From Eledone cirrhosa (lineage: Eukaryota): 57,838 bases of DNA. The DNA lies in the NCBI GenBank assembly GCA_964016885.1, contig CAXHJY010001525.1, positions 1 through 57,838 on the forward strand. The letters run 5' to 3'. The notes beneath the pieces are model-generated. The model was not told the DNA's origin and made no database searches. It saw only the letters and a list, made by a program, of their open reading frames with translations. Positions 1-55,277 of the stretch are shown piece by piece (position 1 is the stretch's first letter; every line of letters begins with the position of its first letter). The translations under genes and the position numbers were made by a program.

Positions 1-1769
1 TATGTGAATATAGACATAGAATATTCAAAAATATTCTGTATGTTTATAATAAACATTTTGAAGACCTAATCGCTATAGAATAGAATACGTCACGTATTAC
101 AATTAGATTCTCGATAAAAGCAAGGGAAGTAATCTACGCGTTTCATTCTTGTTAGAAATCATCAGGACCACATATCCAGTGCTTTTATCGAGAATGACAC
201 AGCTAGAGACTTATAGAATACTTAGCTGTGTACAGGAACTGGTTTGAAAGAGCGGTTGCCGGTCCGGCAGAAATTAGAAATTGGAATAAATGCTCTGAAA
301 TAGCGATATATATGTGAATATAGACATAGAATATTCAAAAATATTCTGTATGTTTATAATAAACATTTTGAAGACCTAATCGCTATAGAATAGAATACGT
401 CACGTATTACAATTAGATTCTCGATAAAAGCAAGGGAAGTAATCTACGCGTTTCATTCTTGTTAGAAATCATCAGGACCACATATCCAGTGCTTTTATCG
501 AGAATGACACAGCTAGAGACTTATAGAATACTTAGCTGTGTACAGGAACTGGTTTGAAAGAGCGGTTGCCGGTCCGGCAGAAATTAGAAATTGGAATAAA
601 TGCTCTGAAATAGCGATATATATGTGAATATAGACATAGAATATTCAAAAATATTCTGTATGTTTATAATAAACATTTTGAAGACCTAATCGCTATAGAA
701 TAGAATACGTCACGTATTACAATTAGATTCTCGATAAAAGCAAGGGAAGTAATCTACGCGTTTCATTCTTGTTAGAAATCATCAGGACCACATATCCAGT
801 GCTTTTATCGAGAATGACACAGCTAGAGACTTATAGAATACTTAGCTGTGTACAGGAACTGGTTTGAAAGAGCGGTTGCCGGTCCGGCAGAAATTAGAAA
901 TTGGAATAAATGCTCTGAAATAGCGATATATATGTGAATATAGACATAGAATATTCAAAAATATTCTGTATGTTTATAATAAACATTTTGAAGACCTAAT
1001 CGCTATAGAATAGAATACGTCACGTATTACAATTAGATTCTCGATAAAAGCAAGGGAAGTAATCTACGCGTTTCATTCTTGTTAGAAATCATCAGGACCA
1101 CATATCCAGTGCTTTTATCGAGAATGACACAGCTAGAGACTTATAGAATACTTAGCTGTGTACAGGAACTGGTTTGAAAGAGCGGTTGCCGGTCCGGCAG
1201 AAATTAGAAATTGGAATAAATGCTCTGAAATAGCGATATATATGTGAATATAGACATAGAATATTCAAAAATATTCTGTATGTTTATAATAAACATTTTG
1301 AAGACCTAATCGCTATAGAATGAAACGCGTAGATTACTTCCCTTGCTTTTATCGAGAATCTAATTGTAATACGTGACGTATTCTATTCTATAGCGATTAG
1401 GTCTTCAAAATGTTTATTATAAACATACAGAATATTTTTGAATATTCTATGTCTATATTCACATATATATCGCTATTTCAGAGCATTTATTCCAATTTCT
1501 AATTTCTGCCGGACCGGCAACCGCTCTTTCAAACCAGTTCCTGTACACAGCTAAGTATTCTATAAGTCTCTAGCTGTGTCATTCTCGATAAAAGCACTGG
1601 ATATGTGGTCCTGATGATTTCTAACAAGAATGAAACGCGTAGATTACTTCCCTTGCTTTTATCGAGAATCTAATTGTAATACGTGACGTATTCTATTCTA
1701 TAGCGATTAGGTCTTCAAAATGTTTATTATAAACATACAGAATATTTTTGAATATTCTATGTCTATATT
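1..1769. mobile_element. 310-bp tandem repeat array with one hammerhead ribozyme per unit (non-LTR retrozyme-like); internal inversion at ~1321
   Basis: Units start at 1, 311, 621, 931 and 1241 and look identical by eye. From 1321 the same sequence runs reverse-complemented to 1769, then (AT)n. HHRs lie on the minus strand at 129-171, 439-481, 749-791, 1059-1101 and on the plus strand at 1605-1647. Confidence 0.9.
1605..1647 (+). ncRNA. Type I minimal hammerhead ribozyme (310-bp family, representative copy)
   Basis: Helix I GTGGTC/GATTAC (two G-U pairs); core CTGATGA at 1611-1617; helix II TTCT-AACA-AGAA; GAAA at 1632-1635; palindromic helix III ACGCGT; GUA cleavage triplet ending at 1641. 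Enclosed by a perfect 16-bp inverted repeat at 1581-1596/1654-1669. Confidence 0.88.
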
Positions 1770-9162: not shown

Positions 9163-9166
<4 letters not shown>

Positions 9167-9704
9167 AAGCTACTCAAAGGGCAATCACGAAAAAGATAGA
9201 TGGCCATGTCAGACCTTGACTACTGGGGTCGATTGGAAAACCTGAAACTTTACTCACTCCAACGTCGCCGTGAGCGTTATATTATCTGCATGATGTGGAA
9301 AATGTTCCATCATCACTGCCCAAATGATGTTGGCATCGCCTTCAAGATACACCCAAGGCTTGGGCCCCGTGCTATCCGTCCCATTCAAAAATCTAAATCG
9401 CAACTCATAACAACAGTACGGCACAATTATTTCACCTCAATCGGCCCTGCTCTCTTCAACATCACGCCAGGACACGTCAAAACAGAAACTGACCACACAA
9501 AATTCAAGAAGTCTTTGGACAAATTCCTCCAAGTAATCCCGGACAAACCACCCACACCCGGATATGTCTCCGCAAACAGTAATTCTCTTCTCGAATGGGC
9601 CATGGGTGCCCAAATCCTGAATTGAAAGACTTCGCCAGGTGGTGCTATTAAGTTAGACATGGCCTGGGCCAATACTGGCCAAAACATTTCAAAGTTATTC
9701 AAAG

Positions 9705-9733: not shown

Positions 9734-9742
<9 letters not shown>

Positions 9743-9856
9743 TGAGATTCTACAGTTCTAGTCCTGTAGAATCTCATCTATATTAAAACTTTTATACTCT
9801 GCTATGTATTGAGTACCTTACTTACTGTGGTTACCTCCGATTCAACCCGGAATAAC

Positions 9857-13565: not shown

Positions 13566-14231
13566 TTTTCACTGGTCACTCACAGTAAAGTGACCAGTGA
13601 AAAACTCGGTACATCTACATATGTATACGTGTGTGTATTCATATGCATACTAGTATTTCAGTATACATATGTGGATGTACATTTTTAACTTAATTGTTTA
13701 AGCGTCAGTCATACAAAAGTGAGTTACAAACGAACAAAATTTAATTTTGTTTCGTTATTTGTTGTTATCGTCTCCGTTGAACCGGTACGTACTCACGCTC
13801 TATGCAAATTAGTCTGCCCACTACTAATTTTCATAGAAAAAGCATATAACGATATGTGCTTTTACGATTCTCTAGAAAGGCCGGAAGATAGGTAAATATT
13901 GCTGATGAGATGTAACAACATCGAAACTAGTTCAATATTCCTTGTCTGGCTTTCTGGAGAATAGAGGAAAGGTGTTTCCTCAAAAACCAGTATGACTCTA
14001 AAAACCGGTTTTGTCTGTGTGTTTACATACAGAATAGCTGGACACTCACAGTAAAGTGACCAGTGAAAAACTCGGTACATCTACATATGTATACGTGTGT
14101 GTATTCATATGCATACTAGTATTTCAGTATACATATGTGGATGTACATTTTTAACTTAATTGTTTAAGCGTCAGTCATACAAAGTGAGTTACAAACGAAA
14201 CGAAATTTAATTTTGTTTCGTTATTTGTTGT

Positions 14232-14233
<2 letters not shown>
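13566..14233 (+). mobile_element. 466-bp-period partial tandem repeat with hammerhead ribozyme (second retrozyme-like or non-autonomous Penelope family)
   Basis: 13577-13767 is repeated at 14043-14233 (period 466). HHR at 13895-13939, several long hairpins, a 5' fold-back, and (AT)n on both sides. Confidence 0.85.
13895..13939 (+). ncRNA. Type I minimal hammerhead ribozyme
   Basis: AATATTG-CTGATGA-GATGT(AACA)ACATC-GAAA-CTAG-T-T-CAATATT: 7-bp helix I, 5-bp helix II, palindromic ACTAGT helix III, GUU triplet. Outer helix at 13868-13879/13950-13961. Confidence 0.92.
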
Positions 14234-17213: not shown

Positions 17214-20254
<3,041 letters not shown>

Positions 20255-20255
<1 letters not shown>

Positions 20256-21384
20256 ACTTTGAATAACTTTGAATTGAAATGTTTTGGCCAGTATTGGCCC
20301 AGGCCATGTCTAACTTAATAGCACCACCTGGCGAAGTCTTTCAATTCAGGATTTGGGCACCATGGCCCATTCGAGAAGAGAATTACTGTTTGCGGAGACA
20401 TATCCGGGTGTGGGTGGTTTGTCCGGGATTACTTGAGGAATTTGTCCAAAGACTTCTTGAATTTTGTGTGGTCAGTTTCTGTTTTGACGTGTCCTGGTGT
20501 GATGTTGAAGAGAGCAGGGCCGATTGAGGTGAAATAATTGTGCCGTATTGTTGTTATGAGTTGCGATTTAGATTTTTGAATGGGACGGTTAGCACGGGGC
20601 CCAAGCCTTGGGTGTATGTGTTTTTGTTAATCTTGAAAGGAGATGCCAACATCATTTGGGCAGTGATGATGGAACATTTTCCACATCATGCAGATAATAT
20701 AACGCTCACGGCGACGTTGGAGTGAGTAAAGTTTCAGGTTTTCCAATCGACCCCAGTAGTCAAGGTCTGACATGCCATCTATCTTTTTCGTGATTGCCCT
20801 TTGAGGAGCTTCAAGTTTCATGATACTTTGTTTCGTGTGGGGAGACCACAGTGGACAACAGTATTCAAGGTGTGGTCGGGCGAAAGTAGAGAAGAGAAGG
20901 ATAATGGTGCGGGAATCTCTCGACTGGAAGGTTCTGAGGATCCAGGAACACATTCTGCGGGCCATGTCAACTTTGCTGCTTATATGCGTGGTCCAGCTTA
21001 TGTTGCTGTCCACGGTTACTCCCAAGTCTCTGATGTTGTTAGATGCCACGAGAGTTTCCCCGGAGGGAAGGGAGTACGGGAGTTTCAGAGCATCCTCTTT
21101 TCCAAAGTGGATCAGTTCGAATTGTCTTCGTTCAGTAACATGTTGTTCTTTTCTGCCCATTGGGTAACAGCCAGTAGGTCTGACTGAAGGCTTATCCGGT
21201 CATCCACGCCATTGATGACCTTTTGGAGCTTGGAATCATCAGCGAAAATTTTAATGTTGCTGTGTTTGATGGTGTCAGTGATGTCATTAATATAGATGAT
21301 GAAGAGAAGTGGGCCCAACACAGTGCCTTGTGGGACTCCACTACTGACTTTGGCTGGGCTTGATTTGACTCCCTCAACTACAAC
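20255..21384 (-). mobile_element. CR1/L2-type LINE, 5'-truncated, frameshifted RT C-terminal half
   Basis: [43 protein letters not shown] and LYSLQRRRERY spread across frames; same 3' tail as 9163-9706. Confidence 0.9.
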
Positions 21385-32409: not shown

Positions 32410-32538
32410 TTATTAAAATAACAGATTAAAGTTTAAGCAAAGAATCGCTGCTTTCACCCTTAACGGGATCTTCTGAAGATCCCGTTAAGGGTGAAAGCAG
32501 CGATTCTTTGCTTAAACTTTAATCTGTTATTTTAATAA
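32410..32538. repeat. Perfect 129-bp palindrome (64-bp arms) centred on a hammerhead core
   Basis: Centre T at 32474. The plus strand reads CTGAAGA-TCCC(GTTAA)GGGT-GAAA-GCA..TGC-T-T. Confidence 0.92.
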
Positions 32539-36589: not shown

Positions 36590-38280
36590 TCATCATCATC
36601 ATCATCATCACCGTTTTACGTCCGTTCTTCCACGCTAGCATGGGTTAGACGGGTTGTCCTGTTGTGGGCAGTGTCTGGTCGGCTGACCATGCCTTGCTCA
36701 TACAGGAACTGATCTGGCTTGATTTCTACAGCTGGATGCCCTTCCTAACACCAACCTCATTTACAGTGAGTGCTGGGTGCTTTTTCGTGGCGCCTACACG
36801 TCCACTTTACAGTGTGGGCTGGGTGCTTTTTTGCCGTGGCACCTCCACGACCACCTTGCGGTGGTGGGGGGGGGGGGGGCATATTGTTTATATGCTTCAG
36901 CATGTACCCATGGGAGGTCGGGTACCCTGTATTACTGCGTGACGCCAGAAGTCACGGTCGTGTGTCATTGACTTTGAGAGGTGTAGTTGGGTAAGGTCGG
37001 CTTTTATCACCTCATCCCAAGTCATCTTGGGTCTCCCCACTCCGCGGTTTCCATCAACTTCTAGTGCTCTGCACCTTTTTATGCAGCTGTCATCCTTCAT
37101 ACGCATCACATGTCCATACCAGCGTAACCGCCTCTCCTGCACGCAGCATTTGATTCCTCTTATGCTCAGTCTCTCTCTCAATTCATTTATGCTTTGTCGT
37201 TCACGTATATTACTGTTACACATCCATCGGAGCATGCAGGCTTCGTTTCTCTCTAATCTACGTAAGTCTTCCACCTTCAGCGCCCAGGTCTCACTACCAT
37301 GCAACATCGCTGTTCGGATACACGCATCATACAGTCTGCCTTTCATTCTGAGGGAGAAGCCTTTTGCAGCTAGCAGTGGTAGTAGTTCCCTAAACTTCTT
37401 CCATCCCGTTCTTACCCTAGTTATTGTACTTTCTGAGCACCCACCTCCGTTGCTAATTCGGTCACCTAGGTAGCAGAAGCTGTCTACTGTTTCTACAGGG
37501 CCCTCCCAGAGATTGGTGGTACTTGTTTCCTGTGGCTGTTTGCTTGCTGTTTCAGCACAGCTGCTGCATGTGAATCCTACATTCTTAATTAAGCTTCCTG
37601 AGATCCCGCTACATCTCTTGTGTACCCATTGTTTGCATTTGGGGCAAAGAATGGAGTTCCTACCTACACCTTTCCTACATACTGAGCAAGGCCATTTCCC
37701 TGAGGGGATCTGGGTTCTGTTTTCTCGTCTACTTATAAGGACCTTAGTCTTTGTCATGTTGACTTTGAGGCCCTTTCTCTCTAGTCCCTGCTTCCAGGTT
37801 TGGAATTTATTCTCTAGTTCTACCATAGATTCAGCTATGAGTGCGAGGTCATCAGCATACAGGAGTTCCCATGGGCATCCGGTCTTAAACTCCTCCGTTA
37901 TTGCCTGCAGGACTATGATGAACAGGAGAGGGCTAAGAACAGAGCCCTGGTGGACCCCAACCTGTACGCTAAATTCCTCGCTATACTCATTGCCAATCCT
38001 AACTTTGCTGACTGCTCCCCTATACATGGCTTGTACCGCTTTCACAAGCCATTCATCTACTCCTAGTTTTCTAAGAGCCCACCAGATTACTGCACGTGGA
38101 ACTCTGTCAAAGGCTTTCTCAAGGTCGACAAATGCCAAGTAGAGTGGCTTACTTTTAGCTAGGTACTTTTCCTGTAATTGCCTCACAAGGAAGAGCGCAT
38201 CAGTGGTGCCTTTCCCTGGAACAAACCCAAATTGCATCTCGTCTATATTCACCCGGTCCCTAATCAGCTGTGCTATAACT
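36590..38280 (-). mobile_element. RTE-type LINE, subfamily B, 5'-truncated
   Basis: Open RT+PHD frame 36897-38280; 3' UTR and tail differ from subfamily A. Confidence 0.93.
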
Positions 38281-38390: not shown

Positions 38391-39461
38391 AGGAAAGGTG
38401 TAGGTAGGAACTCCATTCTCTGCCCCAAATGCAAACAATGGGTACACAAGAGATGTAGCAGGATCTCAGGAAGCTTAATTAAGAATGTAGGATTCACATG
38501 CAGCAGCTGTGCTGAAACAGCAAGCAAACAGCCACAGGAAACAAGTACCACCAATCTCTGGGAGGGCCCTGTAGAAACAGTAGACAGCTTCTGCTACCTA
38601 GGTGACCGAATTAGCAACGGAGGTGGGTGCTCAGAAAGTACAATAACTAGGGTAAGAACGGGATGGAAGAAGTTTAGGGAACTACTACCACTGCTAGCTG
38701 CAAAAGGCTTCTCCCTCAGAATGAAAGGCAGACTGTATGATGCGTGTATCCGAACAGCGATGTTGCATGGTAGTGAGACCTGGGCGCTGAAGGTGGAAGA
38801 CTTACGTAGATTAGAGAGAAACGAAGCCTGCATGCTCCGATGGATGTGTAACAGTAATATACGTGAACGACAAAGCATAAATGAATTGAGAGAGAGACTG
38901 AGCATAAGAGGAATCAAATGCTGCGTGCAGGAGAGGCGGTTACGCTGGTATGGACATGTGATGCGTATGAAGGATGACAGCTGCATAAAAAGGTGCAGAG
39001 CACTAGAAGTTGATGGAAACCGCGGAGTGGGGAGACCCAAGATGACTTGGGATGAGGTGATAAAAGCCGACCTTACCCAACTACACCTCTCAAAGTCAAT
39101 GACACACGACCGTGACTTCTGGCGTCACGCAGTAATACAGGGTACCCGACCTCCCATGGGTACATGCTGAAGCATATAAACAATATGCCCCCCCCCCCAC
39201 CGCAAGGTGGCCGTGGAGGTGCCACGGCAAAAAAGCACCCAGCCACACTGTAAAGTGGACGTGTAGGCGCCACGAAAAAGCACCCAGCACTCACTGTAAA
39301 TGAGGTTGGTGTTAGGAAGGGCATCCAGCTGTAGAAATCAAGCCAGATCAGTTCCTGTATGAGCAAGGCATGGTCAGCCGACCAGACACTGCCCACAACA
39401 GGACAACCCGTCTAACCCATGCTAGTGTGGAAGAACGGACGTAAAACGGTGATGATGATGA

Positions 39462-39518: not shown

Positions 39519-39520
39519 TA

Positions 39521-40280: not shown

Positions 40281-40313
<33 letters not shown>

Positions 40314-40340
40314 GATATATATAGTTTTAATATAGATGAG

Positions 40341-40388
40341 ATTCTACAGGACTAGAACTGTTTCATTCATTAGAAATCATCAGGAAAT
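40341..40388 (-). ncRNA. Hammerhead ribozyme in a ~66-bp insert (40323-40388)
   Basis: Minus strand: TTC-CTGATGA-TTTC(TAAT)GAAT-GAAA-CAG(TTCTAGTC)CTG-T-A-GAA; GUA triplet; helix I is only 3 bp. Confidence 0.72.
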
Positions 40389-44255
<3,867 letters not shown>

Positions 44256-46128
44256 GGAAAAGACCATAAAACGGGCAGTGACCCTGTCACGAGACCACCA
44301 ACACGGCCAGTCTGTGGGGCTAACATTGCTCGTAACTACAGACTGTCCTACTTCCTCTCCCTGATCATACGCCCCATCATTGAAATGTCCCCAGATGTAT
44401 GTGACAGCACGGAGGACCTCCTCAGCAGAATCGGCGAGAGTAACCGATCTAGGGACCTAACAAACTGCATAATAGGTAGTATGGATGTTGTGTCCCTGTA
44501 TCCATCTATTGATGTGGATTTGGCTGTGGAGAAATGCATAGAAATGATCAGTGAGAGCAATGTTGAGTTCCGTAGGATTGATACCTGTGAGCTGGGACTC
44601 CTACTTAAACTTACCTATAGTAATAATTATCTAGACACATATGACCTTAGCAACCTGTGCCCTACAAGACCAGCAAGAGGCAGACCACCTACCATTACCT
44701 CAATGGCCAAGAAAACCCACACAGATAGATGGAACGGGTGGACCAGAGCCATACGGACCCCCGAAAACCACGATGAACTAAAGAAAATGATTGCACATGC
44801 GGTGGGGGCCAGCATAAAATTAACCCTTCAGGAACATATGTTCAAATTTAATGGAAAAACATATGCCCAAGAGAAGGGAGCAGCCATTGGTGTTAGCATT
44901 GCAGGTGACATAGCTAACTTATTCATGGTATGGTGGGACAGTAGACTTAAACTTAAAGAACAATTGGAAGACCCCTTAACCCTGATAATGTACTCTCGCT
45001 ATGTTGATGATATAAACATCGTAGTTAAAACACCCCCACTAGAGAACAGTCAGGAATTAGAGAAAAACACAATGGAAAGCATCCAGCAAATAGCTAACTC
45101 CATCCACCAAAGTATCAGAGTTACTATAGAAAACCCAAGCAAACACCCCAACCATCGATTACCTGTACTAGACACAGAGCCCTAGTTAGATACCATTAAT
45201 AACAAACAACAAATCCTCCATTCCCATTATGCCAAACCTATGGCTTCCAAATATCTGATCCACCGAAACTCAGCTGTTTCAGACCATGCCAAAATCAACA
45301 TACTGATTGCGGATTTGGTACGGGTGATGAGAAACGTGTCCCACATATGCAACCCCCGGAGAACTAGAGAGACACATACAACACTTCATCCACCGTATGC
45401 AGTTCTCTGGTTACAATCAGAGAGATAAATCAGAGTGTATAGAGGAGCAAGAACCAAATGGTAAAAAATGGTAAATAATGACACAAATGGGACCTGCCCC
45501 TTGTATAGGAGCAAATTTTGGAATAGAATAGAAAGAACTAGGAATAAGGCTAATAGAATAAACTCATGGTATGATAGCAATAAATACCAGAGTGTAATGT
45601 TCATCGATACAACCCCTAGAGGTGAATTAGCTTACAAATTTAGAAGGGCCCTAGATAAACAAACTCAATATTAAGATAGTAGAAAGACCAGATACATCCG
45701 TAAAAACACTTATTAGCAAGACATACCCTTTTCAAAGACCCCCCTGTATAGATAAGAAATGTATAACCTGTAAATTAAGCCCCCATATTAACTGTAAAAC
45801 TAGAAATGTAGTATATAGCATAAGATGTACTGAAGGACAATGTAGAGATAAAAATATAGTGTACATAGGTGAGACAGCCCGTAGTGTAGAGGATAGGATA
45901 AATGAACACTGGCGAGACCTTCAAGATAGTAAAGAATCATCTGTACTCAACCAACATGCTAAAATAGAACATAAGGGTAAATTAGAGAACATAGAAATAA
46001 AAATAGAACCTACACACAGAAAAGACGCAATGTTTAGACAAATCACAGAGGCAATAAACATAAAAGAATTACAACCAAAATTAAATAGAAAACATGAGTG
46101 GAACAGCAACATCACAACTTACAATTAA
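44256..46128 (+). pseudogene. Penelope RT-GIY-YIG polyprotein, interrupted
   Basis: Split across track ORFs 44385-45185, 45240-45428, 45468-45674 and 45859-46128 by stops and frameshifts. Confidence 0.88.
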
Positions 46129-46329
46129 GGACAAAATGAAAACACAGATGCACATAGAAAAAACAACCAACCAGTAACATGTAAATAAACAAATAAATAA
46201 ACGAATATAAACACACACAGACACCCGGATGTGGCGCATGCGCAGACTGAGCACACAACACACACACAGAAACATGATGGCGTAGGACAGAACAAAGGAG
46301 AGGCACAAAAACAAAGAAAAGAAACCCCA

Positions 46330-46372
46330 GTCACTGAAGAGGTCACAGAATGTGTGACGAAAGAACTTTGAC
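46330..46372 (+). ncRNA. Minimal hammerhead ribozyme of the Penelope pseudo-LTR
   Basis: GTCA-CTGAAGA-G-GTCACA(GAATG)TGTGAC-GAAA-G(AA)C-T-T-TGAC, in the position expected for Penelope HHRs. Confidence 0.78.
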
Positions 46373-46740
46373 AATATATAAACAACCATCTGGTTGTGGA
46401 ACCAACCAACCAACCGGTAATTTATAAATTCCTAAATTTATAAATTTATTATCATACATTGAAGTGAAAGCAACTGGTGCGTGTGTCTCTTATTGGCAAC
46501 ATGACCCTCCCAAAGTATAACAATATCGGTTTCAACACACGTTTTCAGATAAAGAATCTTGCTAAACAAATTCAGAAACGAAATATATATATACATATAT
46601 ATATACATATATATATATACATATATATACATATATATATACATATATATATATACATATATATATATACATATATATATATACATATATATATATACAT
46701 ATATATATATACATATATATATATACATATATATATATAC

Positions 46741-46811
<71 letters not shown>

Positions 46812-46828
46812 CATATACATATATATAC

Positions 46829-46885
<57 letters not shown>

Positions 46886-46886
46886 C

Positions 46887-46941
<55 letters not shown>

Positions 46942-46951
46942 CATATATATA

Positions 46952-48110
46952 TGAATATAGACATAGAATATTCGAAAATATTCTGTATGTTTATAATAAA
47001 CATTTTGAAGACCTAATCGCTATAGAATAGAATACGTCACGTATTACAATTAGATTCTCGATAAAAGCAAGGGAAGTAATCTACGCGTTTCATTCTCGTT
47101 AGAAATCATCAGGACTACATACATATCCAGTGCTTTTATCGAGAATGACACAGCTAGAGACTTATAGAATACTTAGCTGTGTACAGGAACTGGTTTGAAA
47201 GAGCGGTTGCCGGTCCGGCAGAAATTAGAAATTGGAATAAATGCTCTGAAATAGCGATATATATGTGAATATAGACATAGAATATTCGAAAATATTCTGT
47301 ATGTTTATAATAAACATTTTGAAGACCTAATCGCTATAGAATAGAATACGTCACGTATTACAATTAGATTCTCGATAAAAGCAAGGGAAGTAATCTACGC
47401 GTTTCATTCTCGTTAGAAATCATCAGGACTACATATCACATATGTCTATATTCACATATATATCGCTATTTCAGAGCATTTATTCCAATTTCTAATTTCT
47501 GCCGGACCGGCAACCGCTCTTTCAAACCAGTTCCTGTACACAGCTAAGTATTCTATAAGTCTCTAGCTGTGTCATTCTCGATAAAAGCACTGGATATGTA
47601 GTCCTGATGATTTCTAACGAGAATGAAACGCGTAGATTACTTCCCTTGCTTTTATCGAGAATCTAATTGTAATACGTGACGTATTCTATTCTATAGCGAT
47701 TAGGTCTTCAAAATGTTTATTATAAACATACAGAATATTTTCGAATATTCTATGTCTATATTCACATATATATCGCTATTTCAGAGCATTTATTCCAATT
47801 TCTAATTTCTGCCGGACCGGCAACCGCTCTTTCAAACCAGTTCCTGTACACAGCTAAGTATTCTATAAGTCTCTAGCTGTGTCATTCTCGATAAAAGCAC
47901 TGGATATGTAGTCCTGATGATTTCTAACGAGAATGAAACGCGTAGATTACTTCCCTTGCTTTTATCGAGAATCTAATTGTAATACGTGACGTATTCTATT
48001 CTATAGCGATTAGGTCTTCAAAATGTTTATTATAAACATACAGAATATTTTCGAATATTCTATGTCTATATTCACATATATATCGCTATTTCAGAGCATT
48101 TATTCCAATT
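46952..48110. mobile_element. Second 310-bp HHR tandem array with internal inversion at 47437/47441
   Basis: Left arm about 1.6 units (HHRs on minus at 47076-47118 and 47390-47432); right arm about 2.2 units (HHRs on plus at 47598-47640 and 47908-47950). Confidence 0.9.

Positions 48111-55277
<7,167 letters not shown>

Follow-up and report, generated by a model that had tools for sequence, protein, structure and literature searches.

When a Penelope-like element (PLE) and an array of hammerhead repeats lie in the same AT-rich tract, are they a helper and its parasite, or two arrivals at one target? The question is raised by a 57,838-nucleotide stretch of DNA from Eledone cirrhosa (contig CAXHJY010001525.1), analyzed here at its full length and referred to as the window. 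An earlier note had proposed that a PLE lineage in this stretch supplies reverse transcriptase (RT) and endonuclease (EN) in trans to a neighboring 310-bp hammerhead repeat (the 310-mer). Mobilization of retrozymes by PLEs has been proposed (Cervera and de la Pena 2020, PMC7229834), and for the helper enzyme of animal retrozymes the arguments so far have been co-occurrence and similarity to pLTRs (Li et al. 2026 preprint, 10.64898/2026.07.22.740005). The main text of that preprint, supplements aside, mentions neither a tail nor an octopus, and none of the literature matches listed describes an octopus retrozyme or a retrozyme tail analysis. The helper idea is already in print; junction-level evidence is not found in the accessible text of these sources.

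The (TA)n setting

TA-type tract makes up 53% of the window, which holds 18 insertions (delimited by hand; main features in Table 1). The multi-kilobase tracts, e.g., 40930–44255 and 48111–55277, show strict strand polarity, with interruptions by C only or by G only. Polarity is kept across most insertions, flips at a few points, and is identical on both flanks of the Penelope insertion and of the 310-bp array insertion. That the elements themselves generated the tracts was considered and rejected, because tract polarity does not track element orientation. The window also contains LINE copies that we take to be RTE and CR1-like, all with their 3′ ends in (TA)n tracts: eight RTE-like pieces (10388–57376), which have (TGA)n tails, and CR1-like pieces at 9164–9703 and 20255–21374. 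An internal duplication of 112 bp lies close to the 3′ end of some RTE copies; for RTE, Pfam confirmed the RT domain only. The RTE-like copies at 36590–38273 and 38392–39461 stand head-to-head across a 118-bp TA spacer and are nearly identical (4 mismatches and 2 gaps in 1077), possibly the product of one double-primed event.

Table 1. Coordinates of the Penelope-like element, the 310-bp repeats and associated features in the window.
Positions	Strand	Feature	Remarks
1..1769	−	Second 310-bp array	Runs off the window; at least 4.3 minus units, head-to-head with a 1.46-unit plus arm
17288..17482	+	Single 5′-truncated 310-mer fragment	In (TA)n; same tail-less end
44256..46582	+	Decayed 5′-truncated PLE in (TA)n tract	Begins at about residue 410–430 of 1050–1175-aa relatives
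44256..45182	+	RT core	309-aa open frame; interval from motif A to B′ longer by ~70 residues
45183..45660	+	Thumb and linker	2 stops, 3 frameshifts
45661..46128	+	CX4CxxC linker and GIY-YIG endonuclease	CCHH residues; stop at 46126
46330..46372	+	Minimal type I hammerhead of PLE	Unpaired G, 6-bp stem II, G10.1–C11.1; predicted cut after CUU
46501..46526	+	ORF restart	ATG 46501; 46526 is a main family 3′ end
46527..46582	+	Putative tail of the PLE	~56-nt extension of the window copy relative to family end 46526; codons 9–27 of restart
46583..46952		Spacer between PLE and 310-bp array	370-bp (TA)n/(TATACA)n
46953..47437	−	310-bp repeat, inverted 5′-truncated arm	1.56 units; tail-less end
47441..48072	+	310-bp repeat, direct arm	~2 identical units
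47598..47640	+	310-mer hammerhead	CUGAUGA-U, 4-bp stem II, U-GAAA, palindromic stem III; predicted cut after 47634
47914 (+), 47426 (−), 47112 (−)		Further 310-mer hammerhead cores	In first array
48073..48110	+	Penelope-type tail	36–38-nt extension past the end common to three other copies

The Penelope-like element, a dead member of an abundant family

The neighboring element combines a PLE-type RT and a GIY-YIG endonuclease in a single ORF, as expected of EN+ PLEs. In Pfam, the RT frame matched PF00078 at E = 6e-5, under the gathering score, and the region 45658–46125 matched the GIY-YIG family PF01541 with 25.9 bits, above the 22.6 cut-off; the GIY-YIG core holds two Cys, joined by two His (CCHH). 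Protein homologues numbered 66 at E ≤ 1e-3 among 1527 candidates, and the closest named one, Octopus vulgaris P0001, is 72% identical (68% over a longer tblastn segment). The Penelope identity given in the earlier note is thereby borne out. So is its description of the copy as dead: two stops (45183 and 45462) interrupt the frame, which also shifts near 45355, 45426 and 45660. Four of these five breaks are absent from many other family copies: in organism A, position 45183 belongs to a sense codon in nearly all other copies, and many keep the frame where the window copy shifts, while the 45462 stop is not among the 40 of 420 variant rows listed. No individual intact copy appears among the organism A sequences. 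The window copy also carries at least 33 near-private substitutions (among the same 40 of 420 rows). We conclude that 44256–46582 is a dead, 5′-truncated PLE of a very abundant family.

In organism A the family was matched by 27,867 contigs of run X1 and 201,917 reads of run X20. Summed depth, which is not copy number, increases ~13-fold from the vicinity of the 5′ end to the hammerhead. The family is heterogeneous, since most X20 reads are 90–95% alike. Organisms B–O hold small shares of it (0.05–0.24); organism E yielded 47 contigs at low depth, with 0.48 continuing into unlike sequence. No RNA data set among those listed contained Penelope sequence. Two O. vulgaris gene models (P0063 and P0215, dynein regulatory complex subunit 6-like) start with ~150 residues of this RT, by either mis-annotation or exonization.

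Among the X1 loose ends listed, 149 contigs (agreement 0.55) define a main family 3′ end at 46526, beyond which (AT)n follows. As the window copy ends at 46582, it carries ~56 nt more, an extension that we set beside the optional 30–40-bp tail of PLEs, with the proviso that it comes from one copy and that the ends are listed only in part. Read pile-ups in X20 at 46237, 46123, 46422 and 46572 were considered as element ends, and a joint from 46568 to 46123 as a pLTR tandem; all were rejected as library artefacts because they fall on GCATGC and AATT, which we take to be the SphI and MluCI sites of the window. Opposite-strand joints in X20, each with a single start, were set aside.

A covarying hammerhead and an ORF restart

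The earlier note had placed a hammerhead at 46330–46372, and these coordinates proved exact. The motif consists of a 4-bp stem I, CUGAAGA, one unpaired G, a 6-bp stem II, GAAA and a minimal stem III. It fits the minimal PLE hammerhead described by Cervera and de la Pena (2014), in which a long stem II is preceded by one unpaired base and G10.1–C11.1 is highly conserved. Rfam gave no hammerhead match on the Penelope element or the 310-mer, a further search returned microsatellite matches only (150 of 681 matches listed), and the fold taken alone is weak (z −1.8). Loose ends of X1 contigs cluster on both sides, 147 before 46329 and 77 behind 46375, which marks the motif as a conserved island; some organism A contigs match 46329–46375 alone. 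Across six hand-picked rows, chosen for the motif, pairing in stem II reaches 36/36 cells, against 22–58% in slid controls, and 5/6 pairs show two-sided changes. These lineage hammerheads close stem II by G-C in five rows and by G-U in the sixth.

The restart of the ORF at ATG 46501, also read in the earlier note, was confirmed by its peptide, which matches the N-termini of P0015 (6/2000 shuffles) and P0022 (40/2000) and the restart of the tandem contig L002 (6/5000); the other 13 of the 15 full-length protein N-termini compared gave no match. Eight metagenomic loci share 41–50% RT identity with the window copy, and five of them repeat the order of stop, hammerhead and ATG restart: L002 and L003 have terminal repeats, and L001, L005 and L006 end in (AT)n, 7–24 codons into the restart. 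No such end was found in L004, L007 and L008. A mechanical hammerhead descriptor recognized only L002 and L006 among 13 loci, and the hammerheads of L001, L003 and L005, which have variant cores, were added by eye. The window restart, these relatives and the L002/L003 repeats together display the tandem organization and the pLTR of 3′ UTR plus ORF start that characterize PLEs; in rotifer PLEs the pLTR includes 12 codons, or 22 with the tail (PMC3846280). Several of L001–L007 have repeated GACGTCA motifs around the stop codon and in the 3′ UTR, and TGCGTGT just 5′ of the restart ATG is common to L001, L006 and the window. No relatives were found in viral contigs.

Junctions of the 310-bp array

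The array starts 370 bp beyond the Penelope copy, in agreement with the distance of about 370 bp given earlier. Its first arm is inverted and head-to-head with the direct arm, so that it is not a plain tandem, a feature that the earlier note left unmentioned. Both 310-bp arrays of the window (2/2) have head-to-head arms. Because each inverted arm shows 0 mismatches to its own direct arm and 4–5 to the other array, we interpret each array as one event; the two arrays differ by 3/310. Of the four 3′ ends that can be seen, three share one internal AT run as their stopping point (the 1.46-unit plus arm of array 1–1769 is likewise tail-less), and the fourth lies 36–38 nt beyond, a tail length that rests on one array end. 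With this extension the direct arm amounts to 2.16 units; counting the AT run as target shortens the extension to 26 nt.

A non-coding unit in tandem with one type I hammerhead each, within the 150–450 bp size range, makes the 310-mer a candidate non-LTR retrozyme. The window has 12 occurrences of the hammerhead pattern, 10 belonging to the 310 family, and shuffles have 0; metagenome contigs gave 0 matches to the 310-mer pattern. The 310-nt unit is predicted to fold as a self-paired circle (−67.8 kcal/mol, z −3.8, 0/100 shuffles), and its hammerhead alone folds no better than shuffles (z 0.0).

Inverted 5′ copies and 30–40-bp tails are described as PLE features (Craig et al. 2021, PMC8557442), and Frangieh et al. 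(2024, PMC11167929) relate the tail to a pair of internal start sites of the RT. The 310-bp array carries this Penelope-type footprint: an inverted arm, a one-ended 36–38-nt tail and (TA)n targets. Within the window, RTE copies end in (TGA)n and CR1-like copies in short tandem ends; the 310-mer ends have no simple-repeat tail of either type, and masked self-comparison of the window found no match between the 310-mer and these copies. It thus lacks the common 3′ end and simple-repeat tail of a SINE of RTE or CR1. The earlier note had named junction features of RTE/CR1 type as speaking against its reading; those in the window match PLEs and not the RTE/CR1-like copies.

Other hammerhead sequences lie in the same tracts. 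A third family at 13566–14232, in (TA)n, forms a 466-bp partial tandem with a 16-bp inverted 5′ piece; it has a canonical G-C hammerhead (core 13902, 7-bp stem I) and ends at an internal TTAT. A 64-bp head-to-head pair at 32410–32538, whose 3′ end lies in (TA)n, has a U...U-type hammerhead core at 32473 and resembles the 3′ terminus of a Hydra-type PLE. The hammerhead core of a small family (9736–9852 and 40313–40392) equals that of the 310-mer in 25/28 columns (0/200 shuffles, partly core-driven). This family likewise ends just past TCTATATT, and its 9736 copy has an inverted 5′ piece.

Weighing the helper

Mobilization of the 310-mer by Penelope-type machinery of whatever family, as the earlier note had supposed, is likely given the inverted arm, the one-ended tail, the (TA)n targets and the lack of an RTE/CR1-type tail. 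Inversion in itself is not PLE-specific here, because the RTE pair described above is also head-to-head. As to the particular family, we favor, with reasonable though limited confidence, two separate insertions into one pre-existing (TA)n tract, with the 310-mer inserted by the protein of another PLE family, possibly of the Hydra clade. A different Penelope family is likely to have copied the repeat because it has no sequence in common with its neighbor: alignments on either strand were at shuffle level (29–154 of 200 shuffles reach the score), in line with the earlier remark that no clear sequence is shared. Nor did tblastn with lineage proteins reveal a trace of the lineage's ORF start in the 310-mer at E ≤ 0.05, a search that is insensitive since the PLE's own restart was likewise missed.

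Adjacency to the 310-mer is in itself ordinary. By label permutation over the 18 insertions, the Penelope copy would have a 310-mer as neighbor with P = 0.31, and RTE and CR1-like copies abut the same tracts. The earlier caution that the adjacency may only reflect a shared target holds, the shared (TA)n being a better reading than a helper pair, and the pairing of these two elements is probably coincidental.

Candidates for another helper are many, since an O. vulgaris annotation from 2026 lists 31 recently active Penelope-like families (PMC13282606) and octopus has (TA)n-targeting Hydra and Naiad families (PMC8557442). The 310-mer and the small-family cores at 32473 and 40383 share a U...U pair of bases around a 3–4-bp stem II. 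By our count in File S2 of PMC8557442, 14/25 Hydra families have this form with such a stem II, the one published octopus Hydra family falling outside the 14; the count refers to the Hydra clade alone. No Hydra ORF occurs in the window.

Against another family as helper stand the properties of the neighbor itself. Its family is numerous and inserts into (TA)n; it likewise has its end at an internal AT run, and other copies are open where the window copy is broken, so it could serve as helper. In that case intact copies elsewhere would supply RT and endonuclease and recognize the 310-nt RNA by structure. The 3′-biased depth, the (AT)n ends of L001, L005 and L006, and the fact that Penelope copy and 310-mer both end at an internal AT run are consistent with this. 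The absence of common sequence, the different hammerhead form, the chance-level adjacency and the tail lengths (~56 versus 36–38 nt, one copy each) make it unlikely nonetheless. The divergences differ as well: at least 33 near-private substitutions in the Penelope copy (among the 40 rows listed) against 3/310 between arrays, from which two insertions of different age are probable. PLE cis signals have been located around the ORF start (PMC11167929), and a rotifer study, in its accessible text, reports no cross-mobilization between its two PLE types. The trans-helper role that the earlier note gave to this lineage is therefore not supported.

Insertion of the 310-mer by a LINE of RTE/CR1-like type, or its spread at the DNA level, with arms formed by fold-back or double priming at (TA)n hairpins, is quite improbable. 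Young RTE copies (89–99% alike) and CR1-like copies do adjoin the same TA tracts, and besides the head-to-head RTE pair there is an RTE fragment at 39520 that begins with a hairpin. Against this route, the 310-mer shows no LINE-type 3′ repeat and no common 3′ end; it has instead a fixed internal end with an optional 36–38-nt extension and a direct arm-to-arm junction, and three more hammerhead families share the same short inverted or partial-tandem build. That the identical inverted arms are an assembly or long-read fold-back artefact of low-complexity DNA, as zero mismatches within arrays and TA tracts of several kilobases might suggest, is highly improbable, given that the arms are unequal and one has a private 4-bp insertion, that the two arrays differ by fixed variants, and that three independent ends coincide.

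Starting from the observed anatomy, junctions, array-specific arm identity and family abundance, we infer how another PLE family might have inserted the 310-mer. Tandem 310-mer transcripts would self-cleave as dimeric hammerheads into 310-nt units, which are predicted to circularize. A dimer of the helper's RT/GIY-YIG protein would nick (TA)n on both strands. Reverse transcription would then be primed at two internal sites 36–38 nt apart, and more than one unit copied per strand. The outcome would be a direct arm with the tail and an inverted arm without it.

A tail and a head-to-head arm on a retrozyme array together form a mechanistic footprint. Its occurrences can be tallied genome-wide, it is open to testing in the existing in vitro PLE assay, and it allows a helper to be assigned once sequence similarity is gone. 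Together with the unplaced lineage, this junction footprint is a modest, testable addition. We also entertain, tentatively, a joint reading: a community of TA-tract retrozymes with PLE clades of their own, in which the 310-mer bears a two-site footprint and the neighbor belongs to an unnamed marine PLE clade. If it were true, octopus (TA)n hammerhead retrozymes would be readable by tail length and hammerhead form, and the 310-mer junctions would directly record two-site PLE priming on circular RNA. The neighbor's widespread marine clade would then unite a telomerase-length finger insertion, a C-terminal endonuclease and a hammerhead.

Comparison with known systems

The 310-mer resembles the non-LTR animal retrozymes (PMC7229834; 10.64898/2026.07.22.740005) in its low-GC, non-coding tandem unit of ~310 bp, its type I hammerhead with palindromic stem III in each unit, its predicted self-paired circle and a genome that also contains PLEs. 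Neither the inversion of head-to-head arms nor the tail or the targeting of (TA)n is reported in the accessible text of those sources. It also differs in lacking homology to the neighboring pLTR, whereas 24/57 Xenopus families matched Repbase elements, nearly all PLEs (10.64898/2026.07.22.740005). With the Hydra clade, including Hydra-1_Obim (Craig et al. 2021, PMC8557442), it shares the (TA)n target and, together with the 32473 and 40383 fragments, the hammerhead form.

The window PLE itself is not a Hydra element. Its RT lineage has the KDH, RWK and YPSI motifs of Hydra-clade RTs, but that clade lacks CCHH and an IFD, has a CxCX5C linker and measures <3 kb, and the window PLE departs from it on every count: it keeps CCHH, lacks CxCX5C, has a long finger insertion and exceeds 3 kb. 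Poseidon PAc of Anolis (PMC11167929) is alike in its end inside the ORF start, its optional tail, its AT-rich target and a hammerhead near the start codon. It belongs to another clade, and its hammerhead overlaps the ATG, whereas the window core lies 167 nt upstream. Closest in build are Neptune/Nematis (Craig et al. 2021, PMC8557442), which share the RT followed by GIY-YIG, the CX2-5CxxC linker (short in the window PLE, as in the Nematis rows of Fig. S2), CCHH, a minimal hammerhead, a pLTR reaching the ORF start, 5′ truncation and a microsatellite target.

The window lineage differs from Neptune/Nematis, which have DKG and no finger insertion, in its RT. Motifs A and B′ are 120–144 aa apart in 85/85 RTs (the query and 84/158 BLAST hits covering >270 residues), compared with ~60 in DreriNep1, 84 in Naiad-Amil and 118 in human TERT by our own count in Fig. 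S1 of PMC8557442. DKS, KDH and LRW replace DKG and PKxHK in most lineage RTs (DKS in 99 and DKG in 20 of 214 proteins, many partial). The endonuclease lies 3′ of the RT in 87/88 homologues having both motifs. Naiad/Chlamys, by contrast, have an N-terminal EN, a CxC domain and no canonical hammerhead, where the window PLE has a C-terminal EN and a hammerhead.

In a predicted RT structure (pLDDT 78), Foldseek returned two matches at E ≤ 0.001, both telomerases, with TM ~0.4; VIA-align did not separate telomerase (Z 11.0, rmsd 4.1, 220 aligned) from unrelated polymerases (Z 12.1, rmsd 3.8, 220 aligned). Atlas contained generic RT clusters only, the supplement of Craig et al. (PMC8557442), as available, gave 0 matches to two motifs of the lineage, and no published description of it was found in the literature searched. 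As far as the published clade definitions compared here extend, a telomerase-length RT finger insertion combined with a C-terminal endonuclease fits none of them. Such an insertion in a lineage with C-terminal EN is relevant to the view of the IFD as a mark of Naiad/Chlamys and telomerase.
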